64,000 nt of DNA from an uncultured Methanomicrobiales archaeon. Lineage in GTDB: Archaea; Halobacteriota; Methanomicrobia; Methanomicrobiales; Methanospirillaceae. Positions 25,317 to 47,792 of the stretch are shown in pieces. Position 1 is the first letter of the stretch. Each line of letters opens with the position of its first letter. The notes beneath the pieces were generated by a model, which searched no databases, was not told the DNA's origin, and was given only the letters and a program-made list of their open reading frames with translations. The stretch lies in NCBI GenBank assembly GCA_963697895.1, contig OY969100.1, positions 1,088,001-1,152,000 on the forward strand, given 5' to 3'. A program made the translations under genes and the position numbers.

Positions 25317-26780
25317 TTACTTTTTTGTCCCGGTCAGGGAACCGAGCACTCCCCGGATGATCTCCCTGCCGATCTGGCTCCCGATCGCCTGGGCGGCGCT
25401 CTTTGCCGCAGACCCCATGAGACCACCCGGGGCAGCACGGGAAGATTTGGGCGCCTTCTTTTCAGGCACCTCCGGTTTCTTCGGCGCAACGGTCTTCTCC
25501 GCTCTCATCTTCAGTTGTTCATACGCGGATTCACGGTCGACGACGTTCGCATAGGTTGCCCGGAGCGGGGAATCCCGGATGATCAATTCCCGCTCTTCCG
25601 GCGTGAGCGGGGCGATCCGGCTGTGGGGCGGATAGATGAGGGCGCGTTCGACCATGGTCGGACTTCCTCTGGCATCCAGCATCGAGACGAGCGCTTCCCC
25701 GATCCGGAGATCCGTAATCGCGGTCACCGTGTCGAATGCCGGGTTGGGCCGCAGCGTCTGCGCCGCCCCCTTCACCTCTTTCTGGTCCTTCGGGGTGAAG
25801 ACCCGGAGGGCATGGTGCACCCGGTTCCCGAGCTGCCCGAGGACCGGGTCCGGGAGGTCGAGCGGGTTCTGAGTGACAAAGTACACCCCGATCCCCTTCG
25901 ACCGGATCAACCGGACGACCTGCACGATCCGCTCCTCGAGCATCTTCGGGGTGTCCTGGAAGAGCAGATGGGCCTCGTCAAAGAAGAATACCAGCCGGGG
26001 TTTTTCGGGGTCCCCGACCTCGGGGAACTGTTCGAAGAGTTCGGAGAGGAGCCAGAGGAGGAGTGTGGCGTATACCTTCGGGGACTGCATCAGGCGGTCG
26101 GCCGCAAGGATGTTGACCATCCCGCGGCCTTGTGAATCATTCCGGGTAAAATCAAGGACATTCATGGCAGGTTCCCCGAAGAAGCGGTCGGCCCCCTGTT
26201 GTTCGAGGGTGAGCAGGCTCCTCTGGATGGAACCGATGCTGGACGGGGATATGTTCCCGTACTGGCTTTTTAAATCTTTTGCGTGATCGCTGCAGTACTG
26301 GGCCATGGATCTCAGGTCTTTCAGATCGAGCAGCAGGAGGCCCTGGTCGTCAGCGATCTTGAAGAGTATCGTGAGTACGTCCGTCTGGATATCGTTCAGA
26401 TCCAGGATCCGCCCCAGGAGCAGCGGTCCCATCTCCGAGACCGTTGTCCTGACCGGGTGGCCGGATTCCCCGTACACATCCCAGAACGTGACCGGATAGC
26501 CATCCGGGAGCACCCCGGGAAGTCCGAGTTCCGCTGCCCGTTCGACGATCTTCGGGTTGTCCCCGCCGGGCTTTACCATCCCGGAGAGATCTCCCTTGAT
26601 ATCTGCCATGAAGACCGGGACCCCGATCCGGGAAAAATTTTCGGCGAGCACCCGCAGCGTTACCGTCTTCCCGGTCCCGGTCGCCCCCGCGATTAGGCCG
26701 TGGCGGTTTGCCATCCCCGGCAACATATAGACAATCTGCTCTCCCTTTCCGATGGGGAGGGGTTCAATATTATCCGGCAT
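25317..26780 (-). CDS. DUF853/YjgR family HerA-like P-loop ATPase
   Basis: [55 protein letters not shown]. Confidence 0.93.
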
Positions 26781-33769: not shown

Positions 33770-34636
33770 CTATGTGTTGTAGGGCGGGGACTCGGTATTG
33801 CCGAGGAATGCCAGTGCATTCTCCCCGTACTCGACGGGTGCCCACCGGGACCCGATATGGGGGAGGTCCTTGAACCGCACGAGCCACGATCCATTGATCT
33901 GCCCGGTCATCTGGACCGTAACCGACTCGGGAGTCAATACGTCTGCGGTACCCACGACGAGCATGACATCCTTATGGATACCGGAAAGATCGGCCCAGGT
34001 CCCGTTCCACGCGAGGTTCGCCGCTGCCTCCCGGTGAACGCCTTCAGTCTGGTTGGGATCGGCACCGGAGACTTCAATGATATCGAACAGGAGTTTTGTC
34101 TGGGGAATCCGGATGCTGTATGTTACGGAATCCAGGACCAGTTTTCGTACGCGTTCAGGGTGATCGATGACCAGCTGCTGAGAGACCGAAGAACCCATCG
34201 AGACTCCGTACACATTCATACTGTCATAGCCGAGAGCAGACATGAGCGCCGCGGCATCATCAGAGTACAGAGCAATAGAGGGGGTCGCATTATTGTCACT
34301 GCTATATCCCATTCCCCGGTGGTCATAGGTATAGACATGGTATTTCGATGCAAGGATACCGATAAAAGTCTCGTTCCACGCATTTATGGTCTGGGCGAAC
34401 CCCTCGACCATGAGGAGCGGTTCACCGGATCCGAATTCCCGGTATCCCAGGGTAACCCCGTTGACCTGGGCATACTGGACGGGTGTTGTGTTGAACGATA
34501 CGGGCTGCGGGGGGGCAACTGCCTGACCTCCCGGCGGGCAGGTGACGGGAGTACTGACGGTACTTATACACCCTGCCGTCGCGAGGAGGCATACCATGAC
34601 GGCGATCACCACGGTGACCATCTTTGTCTTGTGCAT
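33770..34636 (-). CDS. Alpha/beta hydrolase lipoprotein
   Basis: ATAGC lipobox; GSGEPLL, YDHRGMG.S, GVSMG nucleophile elbow, GTADVL, terminal PH. Confidence 0.88.
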   Translation of the reverse strand: MHKTKMVTVVIAVMVCLLATAGCISTVSTPVTCPPGGQAVAPPQPVSFNTTPVQYAQVNGVTLGYREFGSGEPLLMVEGFAQTINAWNETFIGILASKYHVYTYDHRGMGYSSDNNATPSIALYSDDAAALMSALGYDSMNVYGVSMGSSVSQQLVIDHPERVRKLVLDSVTYSIRIPQTKLLFDIIEVSGADPNQTEGVHREAAANLAWNGTWADLSGIHKDVMLVVGTADVLTPESVTVQMTGQINGSWLVRFKDLPHIGSRWAPVEYGENALAFLGNTESPPYNT

Positions 34637-34776
34637 TAAAATCCTCTCAATCCATGAGTCAACAGGTAGCACTCTTATATACACCAAAATTTCAATATTT
34701 CGGTTCTGCTTTTTGTTTTATGGGTAAACGATCATCCGTTCCATTTCTTTTTAAAAAAAATGAACCGGGTACCCGA

Positions 34777-35787: not shown

Positions 35788-36453
35788 CTATAGACGGCTG
35801 ACCGCCTTGGGCGATAACCCGTGGATCTCCCGGATCCTCAGGAATATCCCGATCGCGAAGACCTCTGTCCAGAGGAAGATGATCCCGACCAGGATCCGCT
35901 GCAGGAGCCCGGCGATATCCGGGAACGATAAGAATACCGGCAGCACTACCAGGGTCAGCACCGCGGTGGCCAGGGAGTACTGCCAGAATCCGCCCCATCC
36001 CCTCTCCCGGTGCATGACGTACGAAAAGGTCAGTGCGGCAAGCAAAGCCGCTACGATCGCAATGAGGCCGAGCAGGAGGTGCACGTTCCCGGACGTGGTC
36101 ACCGCTATGCATCCCTGGTCGCAGTGATAGAACCCCATCGCGATGAAAGACAGCCCGGCTCCTGCCACCATCACCGAACCGAAGATCACCCGCCGCAGGG
36201 GCCGGAATACCCGGAATGTCGCATAGCTGAACCCCACCAGGAGAATACCGACCAGGCCGAATCCCACGACATTCATGAGCTGGGCATACGGTTCGCCGGG
36301 TACCCCGAGCTCGCTCATCAGCTGGGTCACCGGGTCATATCCCGGGGTCAGGTACCCGGCGACGAGCACGGTTACGGCAAAGAGGGCGGGAGCGGCCATC
36401 CCGCAGAGGGCAGAAGCGGTGACGGGGGAGAGGGAGCGGATCGTGTTCATCAT
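35788..36453 (-). CDS. DUF998 family membrane protein
   Basis: PGYDP..Q.MSELG, H in SGNVH, GLLQR; about 6 TM. Confidence 0.88.
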   Translation of the reverse strand: MMNTIRSLSPVTASALCGMAAPALFAVTVLVAGYLTPGYDPVTQLMSELGVPGEPYAQLMNVVGFGLVGILLVGFSYATFRVFRPLRRVIFGSVMVAGAGLSFIAMGFYHCDQGCIAVTTSGNVHLLLGLIAIVAALLAALTFSYVMHRERGWGGFWQYSLATAVLTLVVLPVFLSFPDIAGLLQRILVGIIFLWTEVFAIGIFLRIREIHGLSPKAVSRL

Positions 36454-36589
36454 TATCCTGAGACCTTCTGAAGGTTTGAAGATTTTCCCGGGGCGCATCC
36501 TCCCGGGAGAGAAAAATAATTGCGACCGTTCATTCCAAAAAGTCTCTTTCCCCAACCCGGGGTCTATTGTGACCCGGCCGGTATTCCGA

Positions 36590-36640
36590 TAATTTTATAT
36601 TCCCAAATTATAATTCCCCAATATATATGGAGGGATAAAG
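36590..36640 (+). promoter_or_regulatory. Candidate archaeal TATA boxes and RBS of the gasdermin-like gene
   Basis: TTTTATAT at 36593-36600, TTATAA at 36608-36613, GGAGG at 36629-36633. Confidence 0.4.
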
Positions 36641-37576
36641 ATGACAATGGATCGGCTCTCAAAGGCAGGGTATCAGGTTATCGCTGTTCCTGATACGGCA
36701 CTCACCCCCTGGACGATCATAGATGGGAATAAAGAAGAATTCAAGACCTTCGGTCCTATCTGGAAATTTACCAAAGAAAGTATACAGCCGGAGATAAACC
36801 AGGATATCATCGGACCTGATGTGTTACTGGAAGCATGCGACGACGTTATCGAAGCCAAAGCAGGATTTTCGATCCTGAACCGCCTGGGGCTGAAAGGTGC
36901 GGACCTTTCTTCAGAGTTTAAGAATGCCAATACCCTGCGCATCGTGTACTCGTCGATACTGAAAGATGCGATCGACCTGATCGACGTAAGCAGATATATT
37001 AAAACGCATCTTCCCGAGAAAGATTATTTTACAGAAGATTTTTTTGAAGCGCTGAATGACAAGGGTGATGCAGCCATCATCTTCGAGACATTGAAGTCCA
37101 ACGAGATCAACTTTGTCGCCTATAACGAGAAAGGGCTTGAAATCAAGGTAAACGCGGAGATGGAAGTGGCAACCGCGAAAGGAGAATTCAGGATATCGGC
37201 CACGAATGCGAACACGCTCTGTTACAAGGGCTCGAAACCGCTTGTTTTCGCGTACCAGGCATTACCGTTCTGGATTAATGAAAAAAATGCCGAATATCAG
37301 TTCAATTTCAGTGTAAACGAGAAGGTCGAAGCGACGATCGGGGGATACCCGACTATGGGAGGGGGAGGAGGACACGGAATGAAAGGAGACCGGCACTATA
37401 TGCGGGGAGGCGGGGGGACGCCTCGTACGGTATCCCGGAATCAAAAACGAATTATAACTCCGGAATATGTCAAATCTCTCGAAGACAAGGGGCTGCTTGA
37501 GAAACAGTTCAAGTCGGTTTTTAAGCCGGACTACAAGATCTATTCTCCAAACACCCTGCTAAAAAAAGTGGGGTGA
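36641..37576 (+). CDS. Gasdermin, bacterial/archaeal type (bGSDM-like pore-forming protein) with extended C-terminal tail
   Basis: Collinear bGSDM hallmarks: L..AGYQVIAVP...LTP..I (cf. L..GY..V..P...I.P), A.L...FKNA..L.I.YS.I..D, IIFETLKSNE..F.A (cf. VITQVIKSNEF.V), TLCYKGSKPLVFAY (cf. TVTYKGEKQLVFGF). Comparison is with recalled bGSDM sequences; no search was run. Confidence 0.8.
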   Translation: MTMDRLSKAGYQVIAVPDTALTPWTIIDGNKEEFKTFGPIWKFTKESIQPEINQDIIGPDVLLEACDDVIEAKAGFSILNRLGLKGADLSSEFKNANTLRIVYSSILKDAIDLIDVSRYIKTHLPEKDYFTEDFFEALNDKGDAAIIFETLKSNEINFVAYNEKGLEIKVNAEMEVATAKGEFRISATNANTLCYKGSKPLVFAYQALPFWINEKNAEYQFNFSVNEKVEATIGGYPTMGGGGGHGMKGDRHYMRGGGGTPRTVSRNQKRIITPEYVKSLEDKGLLEKQFKSVFKPDYKIYSPNTLLKKVG

Positions 37577-37752: not shown

Positions 37753-39177
37753 TCATCCCAGCGGGGACAGGAGGCGTGAGAACTGCTCCTTGGCACGGAT
37801 CCAGCGGGACCGCTTCGCGTAGGTCTCGGGGGTGATCTCCGTGCACCGGTGGAGGTCGTCCAAGAAGGCCTTCTTCAGCTGCCCGGCATACTCCGCACTG
37901 TACAGGAAGGCGTTCGCCTCGAAGTTGAGCCGGAATGACCGGATATCCCAGTTTGCGCTCCCGACCGAGGCCGCCTGCCCGTCGACCACGACGGTCTTTG
38001 CATGGATGAAACCGTTGTCGTAGGTGTACGCCTTCACCCCGGAATCGAGGAGATCCCCGATGAACGACAGCGTCGACCAGTACACGAACGGGTGATCGGG
38101 CTTGCAGGGGATCATGATCCGGACATCGACCCCGGTGAGGGCGGCAATACGTAAGGCGTCGCTGATGCTCTCGTCCGGGATGAAGTACGGGGTCTGGATG
38201 TAGATCGATTCGGTTGCACCGGTGACCAGTTTCAGGTATCCCTCCTTGATCTGGTTATAGCGGGCATCCGGGCCGCTCGAGACCGTCTGGACCGCACAGG
38301 TCCCGGTCCCCGGGATACGGGGGAAGTAAACCGGGTCCGGGGTGAGCTTGTCCTTTGCCGCGTAGTTCCAGTCGAGGATGAACCGGAGCTGCAGGCCGAG
38401 GACCCCCGGCCCGTCGATCTTCAGGGCGGCGTCCCGCCAGTCCCCGAGCGGTCCCTTGCCCAGGTATTCCTCGCCGATGTTGTACCCGCCGATATACCCG
38501 GTCTTCCCGTCGATGACCGCGATCTTCCGGTGGTTCCGGTAGTTGATCGTGTAGATCCGCGGGAAGAAGTCGGCATGTTTTCCCCCGGCCTCTTCGAGCT
38601 CGCGGAGCTGCTTCTTTTTGATCTTCATCCCGAGGTGATCGGAGAGGAGCCGGACCTCGACCCCTTCCCGTGCCTTCTCTGTAAGGAGGGCGATCACCTC
38701 CCGCCCGAGCGGGTCGTCCCGGATGATATAATACTGGAGATGGACGTGGTGGCGGGCGCCCCGGATCGCGTCCAGGAGTGACCGGAACTTCTCGGTCCCG
38801 TCCGTGAAGACTGTGATCCCGTTCTTCTCGGTCAGGATTGCCCGGTTGTTCTCCAAAAACATCCGGATGACCGGTTCGTACCGCCGGACCACCGGATCCT
38901 TCGAATCCGCAATCAGCCGGTCGAGATCCTCCACCTGGGCGGCGACGAGGTCCTGGATCCGGCGGTCATCCTCGGCTTTTAAGGTGAAGAGATGCCGCTT
39001 GGTCCAGTTCTGGCCAAAGAAGAGGTAGAGAAAGAACCCGACGACCGGGAGGAGCAGAAGGACGAGGATCCAGCCCAAAGCCGAGGACGGGCTCCTCCGC
39101 TCGAAGAATACGAGCATGAAGGCAAGGATGTACTGGACGATCAGGAATATTTCGACGATGGTCAGTCCGAGAGCCAT
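37753..39177 (-). CDS. cls: Cardiolipin synthase (phospholipase D superfamily)
   Basis: Two N-terminal TM (PLDc_N), NYRNHRKIAVIDG and HAKTVVVDG HKD motifs, GSANWDIRSFRLNFE. Confidence 0.95.
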   Translation of the reverse strand: MALGLTIVEIFLIVQYILAFMLVFFERRSPSSALGWILVLLLLPVVGFFLYLFFGQNWTKRHLFTLKAEDDRRIQDLVAAQVEDLDRLIADSKDPVVRRYEPVIRMFLENNRAILTEKNGITVFTDGTEKFRSLLDAIRGARHHVHLQYYIIRDDPLGREVIALLTEKAREGVEVRLLSDHLGMKIKKKQLRELEEAGGKHADFFPRIYTINYRNHRKIAVIDGKTGYIGGYNIGEEYLGKGPLGDWRDAALKIDGPGVLGLQLRFILDWNYAAKDKLTPDPVYFPRIPGTGTCAVQTVSSGPDARYNQIKEGYLKLVTGATESIYIQTPYFIPDESISDALRIAALTGVDVRIMIPCKPDHPFVYWSTLSFIGDLLDSGVKAYTYDNGFIHAKTVVVDGQAASVGSANWDIRSFRLNFEANAFLYSAEYAGQLKKAFLDDLHRCTEITPETYAKRSRWIRAKEQFSRLLSPLG

Positions 39178-39564: not shown

Positions 39565-40707
39565 ATGTTGTACCGGAAGATGCAGAAGGCCGCCCCGGAA
39601 CTCTCGATCCTCGGGTTCGGGTGCATGCGCCTCCCCCTGCGGGAGAGCGGGCAGATCGACGAGGAACAGGCGACCGGCATGATCCGCTCCGCCATCGACC
39701 GGGGCGTGAACTATGTCGATACCGCGTACCCCTATCACAACGGCGAGAGCGAGCCGTTCGTGGGGAGGGCTCTGGCAGATGGGTACCGCGAGCGGGTGAA
39801 TCTCGCGACGAAGCTCCCGAGCTGGCTGATCAAGACCCGGGAGGACATGGACCGGTACCTCGACGAGCAGCTCGTGCGGCTGCAGACGGACCATATCGAT
39901 TTCTACCTCCTCCATGGCCTGGTACAGCCGTTCTGGGAGAACCTCTCGTCGCTCCGGGCCACGGAGTTCCTCGACGACGCGATCGCGGACGGCCGGATCC
40001 GGTATGCCGGGTTCTCGTTCCACGGCACCCTCCCCCTCTTCAAGGAGATCGTCGATGCGTACGACTGGACGTTTGCCCAGATCCAGTACAACTACATGGA
40101 TGAGCACTACCAGGCGGGTACGCCCGGGCTCCGGTACGCGGCGAAGAAGGGACTCGGGATCGTGATCATGGAACCGATCCGGGGCGGCCTCCTTGCAAAG
40201 GAGATCCCGGGGATAGCGGAGATCTGGGAGAGGGCCCCGGTCGAACGACCGCCCGCGGAGTGGGCGCTCCGCTGGGTCTGGAACCACCCCGAACCGACCG
40301 TCGTCCTCTCCGGCATGTCGACGCCGGAACAGGTCGATAAAAACATCGCGTGGGCGGAGAACGGCCTCCCCGGTTCACTGACGAAGAAAGAGCTCGGCCT
40401 GTACACCAAGGTCAGGAAGGAGTTCAAATCCCGGGCCGTCATCCCCTGCACCGGGTGCCAGTACTGCATGCCCTGTCCGCACGGGGTGAGCATCCCGGAG
40501 TGCTTCGAGTTCTTCAACCGCGGGCACATGTACGGGGATGCGGAGGATACCCGCCAGATCTATACGATGTTTCTCGGCGGGTTCTTCGACGGGATTCCCG
40601 GGTATGCATCGGTCTGCCAGGAGTGCGGCGATTGCGAGGAGAAGTGCCCGCAGGGCCTCCCCATCCGGGAGAACCTGAAGAAAGTGGCGGCATATTTCGG
40701 GAAATAA
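39565..40707 (+). CDS. Aldo/keto reductase with C-terminal 4Fe-4S dicluster domain
   Basis: LGFGCMRLP, DTAYPYH.GESE, LATKLP, CTGCQYCMPCP, CQECGDCEEKCPQ. Confidence 0.95.
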   Translation: MLYRKMQKAAPELSILGFGCMRLPLRESGQIDEEQATGMIRSAIDRGVNYVDTAYPYHNGESEPFVGRALADGYRERVNLATKLPSWLIKTREDMDRYLDEQLVRLQTDHIDFYLLHGLVQPFWENLSSLRATEFLDDAIADGRIRYAGFSFHGTLPLFKEIVDAYDWTFAQIQYNYMDEHYQAGTPGLRYAAKKGLGIVIMEPIRGGLLAKEIPGIAEIWERAPVERPPAEWALRWVWNHPEPTVVLSGMSTPEQVDKNIAWAENGLPGSLTKKELGLYTKVRKEFKSRAVIPCTGCQYCMPCPHGVSIPECFEFFNRGHMYGDAEDTRQIYTMFLGGFFDGIPGYASVCQECGDCEEKCPQGLPIRENLKKVAAYFGK

Positions 40708-40781
40708 CGAGGAGTGCTGTTGCAGATGCGAAGCCTGGATGCATGGGCAGTTCACGGAATGGAGGGTCTCTGGTGATCGGT

Positions 40782-41675
40782 ATGAAAGAACCGGAACATA
40801 AAACGAATCCGACCTTTGCGTTGGTCCTCGGCGGGGGCGGCCTGCTGGGGGCTGCTTGGGAGGCAGGATTGATTGCCGGCATCGCAGAAGAAGAAGCCGG
40901 AATTACCCGGGCGGACCGGCTCATCGGGACTTCCTCTGGTGCGATTATCGGGTTGCAGATAGCTCTCGGACGAGCACCAGGGGACATTTTCCAGGGCCAG
41001 ATCGCTATGGCGGAGGATTACATAAAACAAAATCCTGTCCGGCCGGAGAGCAGTCCGTCACCGGCCGGGCAACCTCCCATTATTCAGGAGATCCTGAAAG
41101 CGGCTCTCGAGGGTGATGTACCCCGGGAATTGCTGGCAAAGATCGGCAGGATAGCGCTCGAGGCTCCCGCACTCCCCGAAGAACCATTCGTTGCCCAATT
41201 TCAGCCGCTCCTCAAACCGGGCGAGAGGTGGCCCGATCGATTCGTCTGCATCGCACTCGATGTGGAGGACGGCACCCTCGCGGTCTGGGACAAAGATTCC
41301 CGGGTTGATCCGGTTCGTGCAATTGCGGCAAGTGCTGCCGCTCCGTTCGTGGTGACCCCGATTCAGATCCATGGTCACCGGTACATGGACGCCGGTCTCC
41401 GGTCAACGACAAACGCCGACATTGCAAAAGGATTTGACCGCGTTGTTATTGTGGCACCGTCTGCTGCGTTCATGCCTGAGTTGAAAATACCGGCAAAGCG
41501 GGAGGTTGCTATGATTGAACAGGCGGGAGGAAAGGCTATCCTGATCACGCCGGACAAATATTCAACGGAGGCGATGGGATTCAATCCCATGGATGCAGCG
41601 CGAAGCGGGGCAGTGGCAAGGACAGCGTTTAAACAGGGTAAAGAAGAATCGGGGGCGATAAAAGAGTTACTCTGA
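40782..41675 (+). CDS. Patatin-like phospholipase
   Basis: LVLGGGG..G oxyanion motif, GTSSG nucleophile, ASAAAP, YMDAG catalytic Asp. Confidence 0.9.
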   Translation: MKEPEHKTNPTFALVLGGGGLLGAAWEAGLIAGIAEEEAGITRADRLIGTSSGAIIGLQIALGRAPGDIFQGQIAMAEDYIKQNPVRPESSPSPAGQPPIIQEILKAALEGDVPRELLAKIGRIALEAPALPEEPFVAQFQPLLKPGERWPDRFVCIALDVEDGTLAVWDKDSRVDPVRAIAASAAAPFVVTPIQIHGHRYMDAGLRSTTNADIAKGFDRVVIVAPSAAFMPELKIPAKREVAMIEQAGGKAILITPDKYSTEAMGFNPMDAARSGAVARTAFKQGKEESGAIKELL

Positions 41676-44069: not shown

Positions 44070-44885
44070 TTGAAAGGAGGAGCTCCCACGCCGCTGATCG
44101 AATTCCCCCCGGATCAGGATTATCGCGGAGAGGGTATTTCGCAGGGACTTGCCCGGGGCATGCTTGTCTCTGCCGACGGGAGGAATATCACCGGGGAGGG
44201 GATGGGTATCGGCGCTGTCGCCCTGAAGGACGCCCGGTTCTCCTACTTCTCCCGGGAGTGCACCACGACGGTGCACGGGCCGGACCGTATGGAAAAGGCC
44301 TATCTCATCGATACCCGCATGCTCTGGGGCCGGAAGGATTCCCCCTCGGTCTCCCTGACCCGGTTCATGGAGCGGGTGAACAACGGGTACATGCGATGGC
44401 CCGTCCTCCAGTATCTCCTTCCCGTGGGATCTTCCGCGAAGAATCTCCTCGGCCTCCGGCCTGTCTTCGAACCCATCCCTCCGGTCGCCGAGGGACGGTT
44501 CATCTACCGCATAACGGGGAACCGGATCGAAGTCTCCTGCACGATCCGCCCCCTCGCCGGGCGTCTGCCATCCGTGTATATCCTCAGTGAACTTGCCGCA
44601 GATTCGTTCACCCATGCGTTCTCGGGGGGAACGGTGACGAAACCTCCTTCCGGGTGGGTCCGGCATGAACCCGGGAGCGACCTGTACGACCCGGTTCACC
44701 GGCTCCGGTTCACGTTCTCCCCGGGTTCATCAGGGGGATCGGCCCCTCCCACGGTCTGGTGGGGGCGGGAGCATACGAAGAACCTCCGGTGGGCGGGCTA
44801 TTCCCTGGAATTCCCCGAGGGGGAGGAGTCAGGAAAACCTGTTTCGTGCAACTACACGGTCTGTCTCCGGGAGGAATCCCCGTGA
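44070..44885 (+). CDS. Hypothetical protein translationally coupled to a B12 radical SAM gene
   Basis: 271 aa; its TGA overlaps the GTG of the next gene (GTGA at 44882-44885). Confidence 0.7.
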   Translation: MKGGAPTPLIEFPPDQDYRGEGISQGLARGMLVSADGRNITGEGMGIGAVALKDARFSYFSRECTTTVHGPDRMEKAYLIDTRMLWGRKDSPSVSLTRFMERVNNGYMRWPVLQYLLPVGSSAKNLLGLRPVFEPIPPVAEGRFIYRITGNRIEVSCTIRPLAGRLPSVYILSELAADSFTHAFSGGTVTKPPSGWVRHEPGSDLYDPVHRLRFTFSPGSSGGSAPPTVWWGREHTKNLRWAGYSLEFPEGEESGKPVSCNYTVCLREESP

Positions 44886-46321
44886 AGGGCGTAGGAGGGC
44901 TCGCACTGGCACGGGTCGATGCGGCCCTGCCGGGAGAGATCCCGGAGCGTGACGGTGGCGTTGCGCTCATATTCCCGTATCTCCGCGAGGAAGATCCGGT
45001 CGAACCCGAAAAACTGTTTCCCCCCCTCTCCGTCGCGTATCTCTCCAGCCAGCTGAAGGAGCGGTCGGTGCCGGTATCGGTGTACGACGGGACCTTCCGC
45101 TCCCCCGATGAGATCATCCGGGACGTGGCCCGTGAAGAACCCGCGATCGTCAGCATCTACCTGATGATCACGATGGTCCGGAACGGATCGTACCTCCTTG
45201 ATTCCCTGAAAAGACTGCTACCCGACACGCTCTTTATCACCGGCGGGCCTCTCCCGACCCTCTACCCGGTGCGGTTTGCCAATACATTCGATATCGTCTT
45301 CCGGGGGGAGGGCGATCTCACCGTCGCCCGGTTCTGCGACGAGTACCGGACTGCCGGGTGCACCCCGGCCGACCTCTCCGCCCTGGACCTCTCTTCCTAC
45401 CGGGGCATCTACCGGCACCGGGGAGAGAAGATAGTCAGCGTGCCGCCGGTCCACCACCCGGTTTCCGTCATCGAAGCGCTCCCGCTCCCCGACCGGAGCG
45501 GCTTCGACCACCGCCGGTACCAGGAGTTCTGGGAACGCACCGCCGGGTGCCGGATGACGACGATCCTGATCACGCGGGGGTGCCCGTACTCCTGTGATTT
45601 CTGCTCGAAACCCGTCTGGGGAAATGATTACCGGAAACCCTCCCTGGACCGGGTGTTTGCCGAGATCCGGGAGATCCTCGCGCTCGGGTACAACCGGCTC
45701 TGGATCGCGGATGACTCGTTCACCCTCGATACCGGGTATCTCCGGGAGTTCTGCACGAGCAAGGTCCGGGAGGGGCTCCCGTTCACCTGGGTCTGCCTCT
45801 CGCGGGTCGACCGGCTCGATTCGGCGATCGTCGGTCTCATGCGGGATGCCGGGTGCGTGCGGGTCTACCTGGGGCTCGAGTCCGGAAACGATGCAACACT
45901 CCGGCTCATGGGCAAGCAGGCGACGGTTGCGGAGGGGATCGAGGCGGTCCGGCTCTTCCGGGAGGCAGGGATCGAGACCTCGGCCTTCTTCATCGTCGGG
46001 TACCCGGGCGAGACGGAGCAATCGGTGGATGACACCCTTGCACTTGCCTCCTCTCTCCCGCTCGACGAGATCTCGATCAACGTCCCCTTCCCTCTTCCGG
46101 GATCCCCGCTCTTTTCCCGGGTGGGCTCCGTCGACACCACGGCAGACTGGGACAAGGCCAACGATATCACCTTCATTTATCAATCCGAATTCGACGAATC
46201 CGTGTTACGGGAGAAGATCCAACGGGCCGGGGACCTGTTCCGGGAAAGAAAACGGGAACGGAAAGAGAGAGAAAAGCCGGGGGTGATCTTTCCGGGGAAT
46301 GCCGGGGACTTTGTCCGGTGA
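44882..46321 (+). CDS. B12-binding-domain radical SAM protein (class B methyltransferase-like)
   Basis: PPLSVAYL, GGPLPT, GEGD, TRGCPYSCDFC, DDSF, GLESG, FIVGYPGET. Confidence 0.92.
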   Translation: MKGVGGLALARVDAALPGEIPERDGGVALIFPYLREEDPVEPEKLFPPLSVAYLSSQLKERSVPVSVYDGTFRSPDEIIRDVAREEPAIVSIYLMITMVRNGSYLLDSLKRLLPDTLFITGGPLPTLYPVRFANTFDIVFRGEGDLTVARFCDEYRTAGCTPADLSALDLSSYRGIYRHRGEKIVSVPPVHHPVSVIEALPLPDRSGFDHRRYQEFWERTAGCRMTTILITRGCPYSCDFCSKPVWGNDYRKPSLDRVFAEIREILALGYNRLWIADDSFTLDTGYLREFCTSKVREGLPFTWVCLSRVDRLDSAIVGLMRDAGCVRVYLGLESGNDATLRLMGKQATVAEGIEAVRLFREAGIETSAFFIVGYPGETEQSVDDTLALASSLPLDEISINVPFPLPGSPLFSRVGSVDTTADWDKANDITFIYQSEFDESVLREKIQRAGDLFRERKRERKEREKPGVIFPGNAGDFVR

Positions 46322-46598
46322 CACGATTCACGAAGGAATGCAGGGTGATACGTAAATTGACACCGGACGAGGGACAGATGTCATCCATACGAAAACAGAA
46401 GGGAAGAGGGAAATTTTCCACACGCAGGGAAATTGGGGGATCCTTGTCAGCCGATACAGGGAAATTGCAGACATGTCTGGTTCATTTCAACAGGAAAACA
46501 TCCTGTGGCGAGAATACACCACTCCTGCCGGCTGATACCAGGTTCCCGAAAATCCATATCATTTTTTAATCTGTCTGCTTACATCTTCTGGAAACCAG

Positions 46599-47792
46599 AT
46601 GCCGTCCACCCAGCTTCCCGCTTTTCATCTCATGGCAAAACCCGGGGGATCCCGGTGCAACCTGGCCTGCCGGTATTGCTTCTACCTCGGTAAACGGGAG
46701 CTGTATCCGGGAAGCCGGTTCCACATGTCCGATGAAGTCCTTGAAGAGTACATACGGCAGACCATCGGGGCCCATCGCATCCCGGAAGTCACGTTTGCAT
46801 GGCAGGGTGGTGAGCCCACCGTTCTTGGTCCTGACTTCTTCAGAAAGGCGATTGAACTGCAGAAGAAGTATTGCAGACCCGGGATGGTGATCCATAACAC
46901 CCTCCAGACGAACGGTACCCTGCTCGACGACCAGTGGTGCGAATTTTTCCGGAAAAACGGGTTTCTCGTCGGTATCAGCATCGATGGACCAAAGGATCTG
47001 CACGACGCCTGCAGGACAGATGCACAGGGCAGGGGTACTTTTGAACGCGTGATGCAGGGGCTCTCTCTCCTGAAAGAGCATCATGTTGAGTTCAATATCC
47101 TGTGTACCGTCAATGCGGTGAACGGGGACCACCCTCTTCTCGTCTACCGCTTCTTCCGGGATGAGGCGAAGGTGCAGTTCATCCAGTTCATCCCGGTGGT
47201 GGAACGTGACCCTCAGACGGGTGAAATGGCACCCTGTTCCGTGAGGCCGGACCAGTTCGGGAAATTCCTGATCGGGGTCTTTGATGAATGGGTACGACAT
47301 GACGTGGGAGCGGTATATGTCCAGCAGTTCGATACCGCCCTTGCCTGCTGGTACGGCGAACCCCATGGAATTTGCGTTTTTTCGCCCACCTGCGGGCATG
47401 CGATGGTGATCGAGCACAACGGGGATATCTACTCGTGCGATCATTTCGTCAATCCTGAGCACCTGCTCGGGAATATCCTGGTCACTCCGCTGGCAGAGCT
47501 GGTCAACAGCGGGAGACAATCACAATTTGGCCGTGATAAACGCGAAACACTCCCGAAACACTGCCGGGACTGCCCGGTCCTCTTCGCATGTCAGGGTGAA
47601 TGCCCGAAGAACCGGTTCGCGATAGCACCCGGTGGGGAACCCGGCCTGAATTATCTCTGTGAAGGCTACCGGATGTTCTTCTCGCATATTACCGGACCGA
47701 TGAAGTTCATGGTACGCGAATTAACAGCCGGTCGGCCGCCGTCGAATATCATGAAGTTCGTTGCGAGCCGGAATATCTCTGATACTCAATGA
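46599..47792 (+). CDS. Anaerobic sulfatase maturase (anSME/AtsB/ChuR-type radical SAM-SPASM)
   Basis: CNLACRYCFY, WQGGEPT, QTNGTLL, SIDGP, C....TCG, NGDIYSCDH, C.DC....AC.GECPKNR. Confidence 0.95.
   Translation: MPSTQLPAFHLMAKPGGSRCNLACRYCFYLGKRELYPGSRFHMSDEVLEEYIRQTIGAHRIPEVTFAWQGGEPTVLGPDFFRKAIELQKKYCRPGMVIHNTLQTNGTLLDDQWCEFFRKNGFLVGISIDGPKDLHDACRTDAQGRGTFERVMQGLSLLKEHHVEFNILCTVNAVNGDHPLLVYRFFRDEAKVQFIQFIPVVERDPQTGEMAPCSVRPDQFGKFLIGVFDEWVRHDVGAVYVQQFDTALACWYGEPHGICVFSPTCGHAMVIEHNGDIYSCDHFVNPEHLLGNILVTPLAELVNSGRQSQFGRDKRETLPKHCRDCPVLFACQGECPKNRFAIAPGGEPGLNYLCEGYRMFFSHITGPMKFMVRELTAGRPPSNIMKFVASRNISDTQ

Follow-up and report, generated by a model that had tools for sequence, protein, structure and literature searches.

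How might a gasdermin be held inactive, and what might set it free, when it has neither the N-terminal cysteine nor the adjacent protease of a bacterial gasdermin such as that of Runella? The question is raised by a gene in a stretch of 64,000 nucleotides (the window) from an uncultured archaeon of the order Methanomicrobiales, family Methanospirillaceae (GenBank assembly GCA_963697895.1, contig OY969100.1, forward-strand positions 1,088,001 to 1,152,000). The open reading frame (ORF) at 36641..37576 (+) encodes 311 residues, and by sequence and predicted fold its product is a bacterial-type gasdermin. The segment under study, 37290-37576, is the 3' third of this ORF.

In bacterial gasdermins (bGSDMs), an exposed cleavage loop of ~12 residues is followed by a peptide of 16-30 residues that winds around the sheet as far as the beta2 strand; removal of this peptide is toxic (10.1101/2021.06.07.447441; PMC10153256). 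Cleavage is assumed to take place in exposed loops before Gly, Ala or Ser (10.1101/2021.06.07.447441; PMC10153256).

A sequence-only reading of the locus had called this gasdermin non-canonical: no cysteine near the N-terminus, a loss of acylation that might suit its host, and a Gly-rich tail of ~85 residues that a host or viral protease might cut. Here we report a computational follow-up of those claims. The kind of protein is known; what is new is the loss of the N-terminal peptide, a loop and latch two to three times longer together, and the failure to find a partner protease. We favour, with a probability of roughly 0.55, the reading that the protein is an autoinhibited, acyl-independent pore former whose enlarged latch is freed by cleavage of an exposed loop, the protease being of host or viral origin and not encoded alongside it. 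Autoinhibition by the C-terminal module, proteolytic activation, pore formation and a role in defence are the parts of this reading that we infer.

The gasdermin core and its C-terminal tail

The PADLOC bGSDM profile PDLC02986 matches residues 3-233 of the protein (E 2.3e-33). In a profile alignment against 60 typical bGSDMs (hhalign), residues 6-225 fall on columns 10-233 with a probability of 100% and E 2.1e-38. A model from AlphaFold 2 (AF2), built on a 100-sequence alignment, has a mean predicted local distance difference test score (pLDDT) of 82.8 and a predicted template modelling score (pTM) of 0.81, with high pLDDT in the core. Searched with Foldseek, the model finds 7n51, 7n50 and 7n52 as its best PDB matches (probability 1.00, E 5.3e-13 to 2.5e-9). 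A scan of the protein against a local copy of Pfam returned no family. All 8 family members from the protein databases carry the precomputed label PF26164.1, an accession that is absent from the local library and is known to us by number only. A match to RecO (E 1.1) was set aside as noise.

The best match in both sequence and fold is the Vitiosangium bGSDM (7N51, inactive; 8SL0 and 9A84, active). Its structures 7n51 and 8sl0 are retrieved by phmmer at E ~2e-11, and the fold match has E 5.3e-13 and TMt 0.61. The two proteins share the core, each is braced across the beta-sheet by a C-terminal segment (by prediction in ours), and L211 and F213 of Vitiosangium align to L201 and F203, which are invariant in the window family. 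They differ at the two ends: the Vitiosangium protein has a palmitoylated C4 and a C-terminal domain (CTD) of 29-30 residues (10.1101/2021.06.07.447441; PMC10153256), whereas the window protein has no N-terminal Cys peptide and carries a loop of 30 residues plus a module of 49. Mammalian GSDMD and GSDMA3 match the fold through their N-terminal domains, with lower scores. They resemble the window protein in having a core, a flexible linker and a larger C-terminal part that is autoinhibitory (by prediction in ours), but the mammalian CTD is helical and exceeds 200 residues (10.1101/2021.06.07.447441), and the window tail has no sequence similarity to it.

How unusual is the tail? Beyond the conserved F203 the query extends for another 108 residues and its family for 107-116 (82 in the member P0007), compared with a median of 56 in 135 other bGSDM-type sequences (interquartile range 52-63, maximum 99). 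The family alignment comprises the query, 7 relatives and a copy in the genome G673, which belongs to the same archaeal family (nine members). A HMMER search of 1.84 billion representatives gives 161 matches at E <= 1e-3; among the 150 matches listed, all stop by about query residue 257, most of them near 210-240. The hhalign alignment stops at residue 225, with no profile similarity between the tail and typical bGSDM tails. As a separate module in other proteins the tail finds only its own family, the ESM Atlas giving no usable match, and a search for fused or longer forms of the subfamily found none, which is weak evidence. The extension is unusually long, as the sequence-only reading had claimed. 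What that reading had described as a single linker with a basic helix is, however, two things: a variable loop and a conserved module that is predicted to be docked on the core.

The module (residues 263-311) is predicted to consist of a strand (263-272), two helices (274-282 and 286-292) and a short strand (294-296), with pLDDT 83-96 across residues 263-296. No other segment is as well conserved in the family, with identities of 68-94% over residues 272-305, compared with 51-91% for the core. The difference is plain in the distant members P0006 (85% vs 58%) and P0008 (79% vs 51%). Twelve of its residues are invariant in all nine members, the G673 copy included: I272, P274, Y276, L280, E281, G284, L286, P296, Y298, K299, Y301 and S302.

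Does the module bind the core? We modelled the core (1-232) together with a separate chain of residues 263-311. The interface score ipSAE was 0.75, 0.60 and 0.75 in three runs, against 0.01 for the best of 3 controls; the mark set for this score is passed by 58 of 80 solved complexes and by 2 of 110 mismatched pairs. Between runs, agreement in contacts is at least 49%, and the partner pLDDT is 65 or more. In the predicted arrangement strand 263-274 pairs with core strand 220-232, and other module contacts fall on residues 112-121, 143-148, 206-210, 10-15 and 29-34. Because the two chains are one natural chain cut in two, and because bGSDM structures with a docked peptide have been solved, this pass measures likeness and is no proof of binding.

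By analogy with the characterised proteins, the tail resembles the known cleavage loop and autoinhibitory peptide, both enlarged. The module would be an enlarged C-terminal latch that keeps the core inactive. Its first strand would pair with core strand 220-232, and its two helices and short strand would cross the core towards the N-terminal strands. The latch would thereby fill the role of the C-terminal peptide of characterised bGSDMs.

The loop (residues 233-262) is of another character. Gly accounts for 13 of its 30 residues, whereas the remaining 281 residues of the protein contain only 13, an enrichment far above the protein's own background. The Gly-rich string quoted in the sequence-only reading, GGYPTMGGGGGHGMKGDRHYMRGGGGTPR, occupies residues 234-262, and its exposure holds up, the loop being predicted exposed and disordered with pLDDT 44-60. 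It is also the least conserved part of the protein, 13-80% identical to the query across the family. All members keep a Gly/Ser/Ala-rich composition; the G673 loop is unrelated in sequence, and in P0007 the loop is almost deleted, with only a few residues left. We take this segment as a putative expanded counterpart of the short cleavage loop of bGSDMs. Coordinates are collected in Table 1.

Table 1. Features of the gasdermin gene and its surroundings (window coordinates)
Feature	Position	Strand	Basis or remark
Complete bGSDM-family gene, 311 aa + stop	36641..37576	+	monocistronic
In-frame stop TAA upstream of start	36611..36613	+	stop-to-stop frame before M1 reads FPNIYGGIK
GGAGGG, Shine-Dalgarno-like, 6 nt before ATG	36629..36634	+	putative role
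Residues 1-232, gasdermin pore-forming core, predicted inactive fold	36641..37336	+	PADLOC, hhalign, AF2, Foldseek
Residues 233-262, Gly-rich variable loop, predicted disordered; candidate activation/cleavage loop	37337..37426	+	pLDDT, identity, Gly count
Residues 263-311, conserved C-terminal module, predicted autoinhibitory element on core	37427..37573	+	AF2, conservation, two-chain fold
HerA-like helicase gene	25317-26780	-	HerA_C E 9e-213
Alpha/beta hydrolase gene	33770-34687	-
DUF998 gene, 5' neighbour	35788-36555		divergent
Cardiolipin-synthase-like (PLD-type synthase) gene, 3' neighbour	37753-39177	-	PLDc_N + two PLD domains; convergent
Patatin-like phospholipase gene	40350-41675	+
B12-binding radical-SAM gene, then radical-SAM/SPASM gene	44759-47792	+

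The N-terminal cysteine

The translation begins MTMDRLSKAGY and has cysteine only at positions 66 and 194, with none before residue 66, just as had been read from the sequence. In the hhalign profile alignment, residue 4 of the query sits at column 10 of typical bGSDMs. A peptide of about six residues, bearing the M-x-C-K-D motif, is thus wholly missing from the N-terminus. Could a cysteine be hidden by a misplaced start, a possibility that the sequence-only reading had itself raised? The nine codons between the upstream in-frame TAA and the ATG include no ATG, GTG or TTG and no Cys codon. With this stop, no alternative start and GGAGGG in place ahead of the ATG, the start is secure, and an upstream start that supplies a cysteine is excluded. 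Nor do the two internal cysteines offer a substitute site for acylation, since neither is conserved: P0006 and P0008 have Ser in place of C66, P0007 has Tyr in place of C194, and the G673 copy has neither cysteine.

The lack of a cysteine does not by itself set the protein apart, contrary to what had been claimed for it. We examined 129 representatives that are full-length-like (240-330 residues, initial Met), drawn from 149 non-family sequences, without assigning taxonomy. A cysteine at residues 2-8 is present in 80 and missing from 49. On a FastTree tree the state switches at least 7 times. In the founding study the cysteine is conserved in 'most' bacteria, and the bGSDM of Gillisia is Cys-less according to a figure legend (10.1101/2021.06.07.447441). 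We liken the window protein to that of Gillisia by this description only; the Gillisia gene lies in a bGSDM-protease operon (fig. S7 legend, 10.1101/2021.06.07.447441), whereas the window gene is solitary. The palmitoylated cysteine at residues 2-7, present in most bGSDMs though not in all, is typical of them, not defining, and is missing in the query.

Cys loss does go with the archaeal host. A survey of 401 genomes of the window's order yielded 10 bGSDMs, and none of the 10 genes has a Cys codon anywhere from the upstream stop as far as the conserved G-Y motif, regardless of the start chosen. Three of the ten keep the canonical N-terminus with the cysteine alone replaced, by F, V and D: those of genomes G605 (MLFKDSY), G677 (MLVKDSY) and G014 (MGDKDSF). 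Their nearest neighbours on the tree are mostly or entirely Cys-bearing. The ten bGSDMs of the order occupy at least 6 tree positions forced by well-supported branches. These sequence comparisons support a link between Cys loss and archaeal host as a correlation, against representatives of unassigned taxonomy, among kin that are not independent and on a tree whose backbone is weak (54 of 141 inner branches below 80). The earlier proposal that losing acylation suits an archaeal host stands to that extent only.

A second Cys-less group of archaeal bGSDMs, of 285-304 residues, occurs in genomes G008, G306, G708 and G429 (loci L011, L012, L017 and L018). Its tails are long, of low complexity and unrelated to the window's tail, and most of its rows lie within a well-supported Cys-less clade. 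No CHAT protease was found in these four genomes, and only G708 has a C14 match, below threshold and on another contig.

A core that has neither palmitoyl-Cys nor the N-terminal peptide around it must do without an acyl chain, both in the stability of its inactive state and in membrane insertion. Such acyl independence would fit a host with ether-isoprenoid lipids. In a separate observation, Trp residues at 24, 41 and 211 are invariant in the family, at positions that are mostly taken by smaller residues in typical bGSDMs (L, S and L in the hhalign consensus). Their side chains may occupy the groove in which other bGSDMs hold palmitate.

Proposed release of the latch

The favoured reading runs as follows. 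The protein would belong to a rare subfamily, found in methanogen-type archaea, and would be a gasdermin-type pore former that is cytosolic and autoinhibited. A protease would cut the exposed loop, or its more conserved end near R262, and the latch would depart. The freed core would oligomerise in the membrane and the cell would die. The activating protease would be either a host enzyme from outside the known gasdermin-partner families or one borne by a virus.

The bGSDM of Runella with its CHAT protease (7N52), another of the fold matches, offers a template for such an event, and its loop of ~12 residues and inhibitory peptide map to loop 233-262 and module 263-311. In Runella the protease gene is adjacent, the cut falls after Leu247 and before Gly, and toxicity in cells needs C3 (10.1101/2021.06.07.447441). 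The window gasdermin has no adjacent protease and no N-terminal cysteine, and no CHAT or C14 protease was found in its genome.

Where might a cut fall? The sites suggested from the sequence, M254-R255/G256 and the MK/G of M247-K248-G249, are numbered correctly but are not conserved. Position 255 is Arg in 3 of the 9 members and position 248 is Lys in 5, and the loop that would hold them is nearly gone in P0007. The best-conserved basic residue is R262 at the junction of loop and strand, which is Arg in 7 of 9.

Nor does the neighbourhood supply an enzyme. In the founding study a protease gene lay near the gasdermin in 43 of 50 cases (10.1101/2021.06.07.447441). Neither a protease nor a known defence gene was found among the neighbours of the window gasdermin. 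PADLOC returned only generic PLD and patatin domain matches there, and the protease gene within a few genes by which a bGSDM-protease defence system is recognised is missing. The G673 copy has MsrA, an ABC transporter and DUF2150 as its neighbours, none of them in common with the window, and CHAT, C14 and C11 were not found in its genome.

Other archaeal bGSDMs, those of normal length, do adjoin clan-CD proteases: CHAT in G014, Peptidase_C11 in G605 and G677. These three come from the same archaeal family or order as the window protein and are likewise Cys-less. They differ from it in their length (254-257 residues), in their canonical N-terminal motif with the cysteine substituted and in the adjacent protease, and they are only 22-26% identical to its subfamily. 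In G605 (L025:4568-6662) and G677 (L024:7126-10287), both of the window's archaeal family, a Cys-less bGSDM of 256-257 residues lies directly 5' of a Peptidase_C11 (clostripain-family) gene on the same strand. The C11 proteins have 435-436 residues (Pfam E 3.7e-17 and 7.5e-22), the gene pairs are 71% and 58% identical, and a TPR protein comes next in G677. In the library searched we found no paper linking a bacterial gasdermin to clostripain, and the pairing may be an undescribed type of system. In G014 (L003:2-2160) a 254-residue bGSDM stands tail-to-tail with a CHAT protease in an open frame of 1005 residues; by sequence, a methanogen-type archaeon here has a canonical pair of gasdermin and caspase-like protease.

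Several results weigh against the reading of a latch freed by proteolysis. The docking of the module rests on predictions from 8-9 sequences. The sole loop residue conserved throughout the nine members is G243, so a sequence-specific cleavage site is not evident. Peptidase_C14, CHAT, S8, Trypsin_2 and C11 were not found in a single-contig genome that is 93.85% complete. Finally, the cysteine matters in characterised bGSDMs: C4A inactivates Vitiosangium deltaCTD in cells, and C-to-A mutants show less liposome leakage (PMC10153256). A protein without it may therefore act in another way, or only weakly.

A second reading is that no cut is needed. The module could be a sensor or latch that is displaced, for example when a factor of the virus or the cell binds it or when it is modified, with the Gly-rich loop as a mere flexible tether that lets it swing away. 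Eukaryotic gasdermins with a cleavage-independent mechanism are known, namely Trichoplax GSDM and RCD-1, and structures of both are among the fold matches. Activation of this kind would agree with the failure to find a candidate protease family or a partner gene, and with a loop that varies in length and has no conserved site. The excess of module over core conservation in P0006 and P0008 also fits a constraint beyond core binding, but the large interface with the core could alone explain it. Moreover, no known sensor or ligand-binding domain matches the module, and every bGSDM characterised in the accessible text of two studies is activated by cleavage (10.1101/2021.06.07.447441; PMC10153256). 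We judge displacement without cleavage to be unlikely, if worth keeping in view.

If a protease does act on the loop, it might be the very thing that the protein detects. The exposed loop would then be bait, a decoy substrate for the protease of an archaeal virus (for example, one used in capsid maturation), and a single gene would serve as sensor and effector. The sequence-only reading had offered this alongside an Arg/Lys-specific host enzyme. It would suit a gene that is solitary in two genomes with unrelated neighbours, and a host in which the usual partner-family proteases were not found. The loop changes faster than any other part of the protein, which would fit an arms race and fits low constraint equally well. 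However, no virus or viral protease is linked to the gene, a search of viral contigs found no member of the family, P0007 has hardly any loop, and no bGSDM precedent was found in the accessible portions of the literature. A dedicated viral bait is distinctly unlikely in our estimate. Cleavage of the exposed loop by a host or viral protease encoded elsewhere remains the reading that we prefer.

The gene, its genome and its relatives

The host genome is a single contig of 2.09 Mb and encodes McrA, which marks the host as a methanogen-type archaeon. With a divergent gene on its 5' side and a convergent one on its 3' side (Table 1), the gasdermin gene forms a lone transcription unit. Within ~10 kb its neighbours include the membrane DUFs DUF998 and DUF4013, an alpha/beta hydrolase, a cardiolipin-synthase-like PLD protein, an aldo-keto reductase, a patatin-like protein and a sulfatase. 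Three of these are acyl-lipid enzymes that flank the gasdermin (the hydrolase, the cardiolipin-synthase-like protein and the patatin-like phospholipase), a curious set in an archaeon. A functional link between them and the gasdermin is unsupported, the G673 copy having no neighbour in common with the window. The radical-SAM pair and the HerA-like helicase listed in Table 1 are unrelated to the gasdermin.

Relatives are few. A search of 5.8 billion clustered proteins returned only 7 of similar length, all metagenomic (51-88% identity, 283-317 residues). In the HMMER search the next-best match after the query's own cluster is 29% identical. The G673 copy, 39-40% identical, joins the own-family clade with a support of 99 (FastTree). 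By the bGSDM profile, the subfamily occurs in 2 of the 10 genomes with a bGSDM in the order's 401; among 401 genomes sampled from the phylum 4 have the gene, all 4 within the window's order. A pattern scan of species-representative genome contigs found no relative of the subfamily, and no family member was found on viral contigs. Metagenome contigs yielded only 3 short loci, all of the P0006 type. Two small overlapping minus-strand ORFs lie 5' of a metagenomic homologue of the P0006 type (L008:2-687); by eye and from familiar motifs, we take them provisionally to be a toxin-antitoxin pair of the nucleotidyltransferase/HEPN type.

Might such a rare gene be a mere remnant, a gasdermin acquired horizontally that has since lost its partner protease, its acylation site and its regulated death function, and is left with a non-lethal role or none? 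Its sporadic distribution and the failure to find a partner protease would agree with such a history. So would its GC content of 0.472, compared with 0.538 for the genome, which places it in the lowest 3.5% of 1200 long ORFs. But its GC at third codon positions is unremarkable (14.5th percentile), and the compositional case for horizontal transfer is weak. The ORF is also intact in all nine members across 39-88% identity, with invariant core motifs and strong conservation of the C-terminal module, which together point to purifying selection. We consider decay to a remnant very unlikely.

What might the subfamily tell us about archaeal gasdermins at large? Gasdermin is listed in fewer than 10 archaeal taxa (10.1101/2024.10.26.620412), and functional studies of archaeal gasdermins are lacking according to the accessible text of a review (PMC10989679). 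In the library searched we found no paper that links a bGSDM to methanogens, although supplementary tables S1 and S4 of Johnson et al. may list members of the subfamily. A bolder proposal, which we hold tentatively and think unlikely as it stands, is that archaeal gasdermins form a distinct functional class that inserts without an acyl anchor into ether-isoprenoid membranes. The window's subfamily would within it be self-contained sensor-effectors whose module is released without a dedicated clan-CD or serine partner. The trigger could be a viral protease or factor, or the archaeal proteasome, processing the protein in part from its C-terminus and stalling at the Gly-rich tract. Glycine-rich stops to processing are known from eukaryotic proteins and provide the analogy.

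The bacterial gasdermin cysteine is self-palmitoylated and is needed for efficient pore formation; all ten gasdermins found in this order lack it. Cys-less archaeal gasdermins are therefore a natural experiment: is a lipid anchor needed for pores, and by what route do these proteins get into ether-lipid membranes? To this the window's subfamily brings a gasdermin gene that stands alone, whose product has the longest tail of the set and for which no activator is recognisable. Identifying its trigger could uncover a new means of switching on gasdermin-type cell death.

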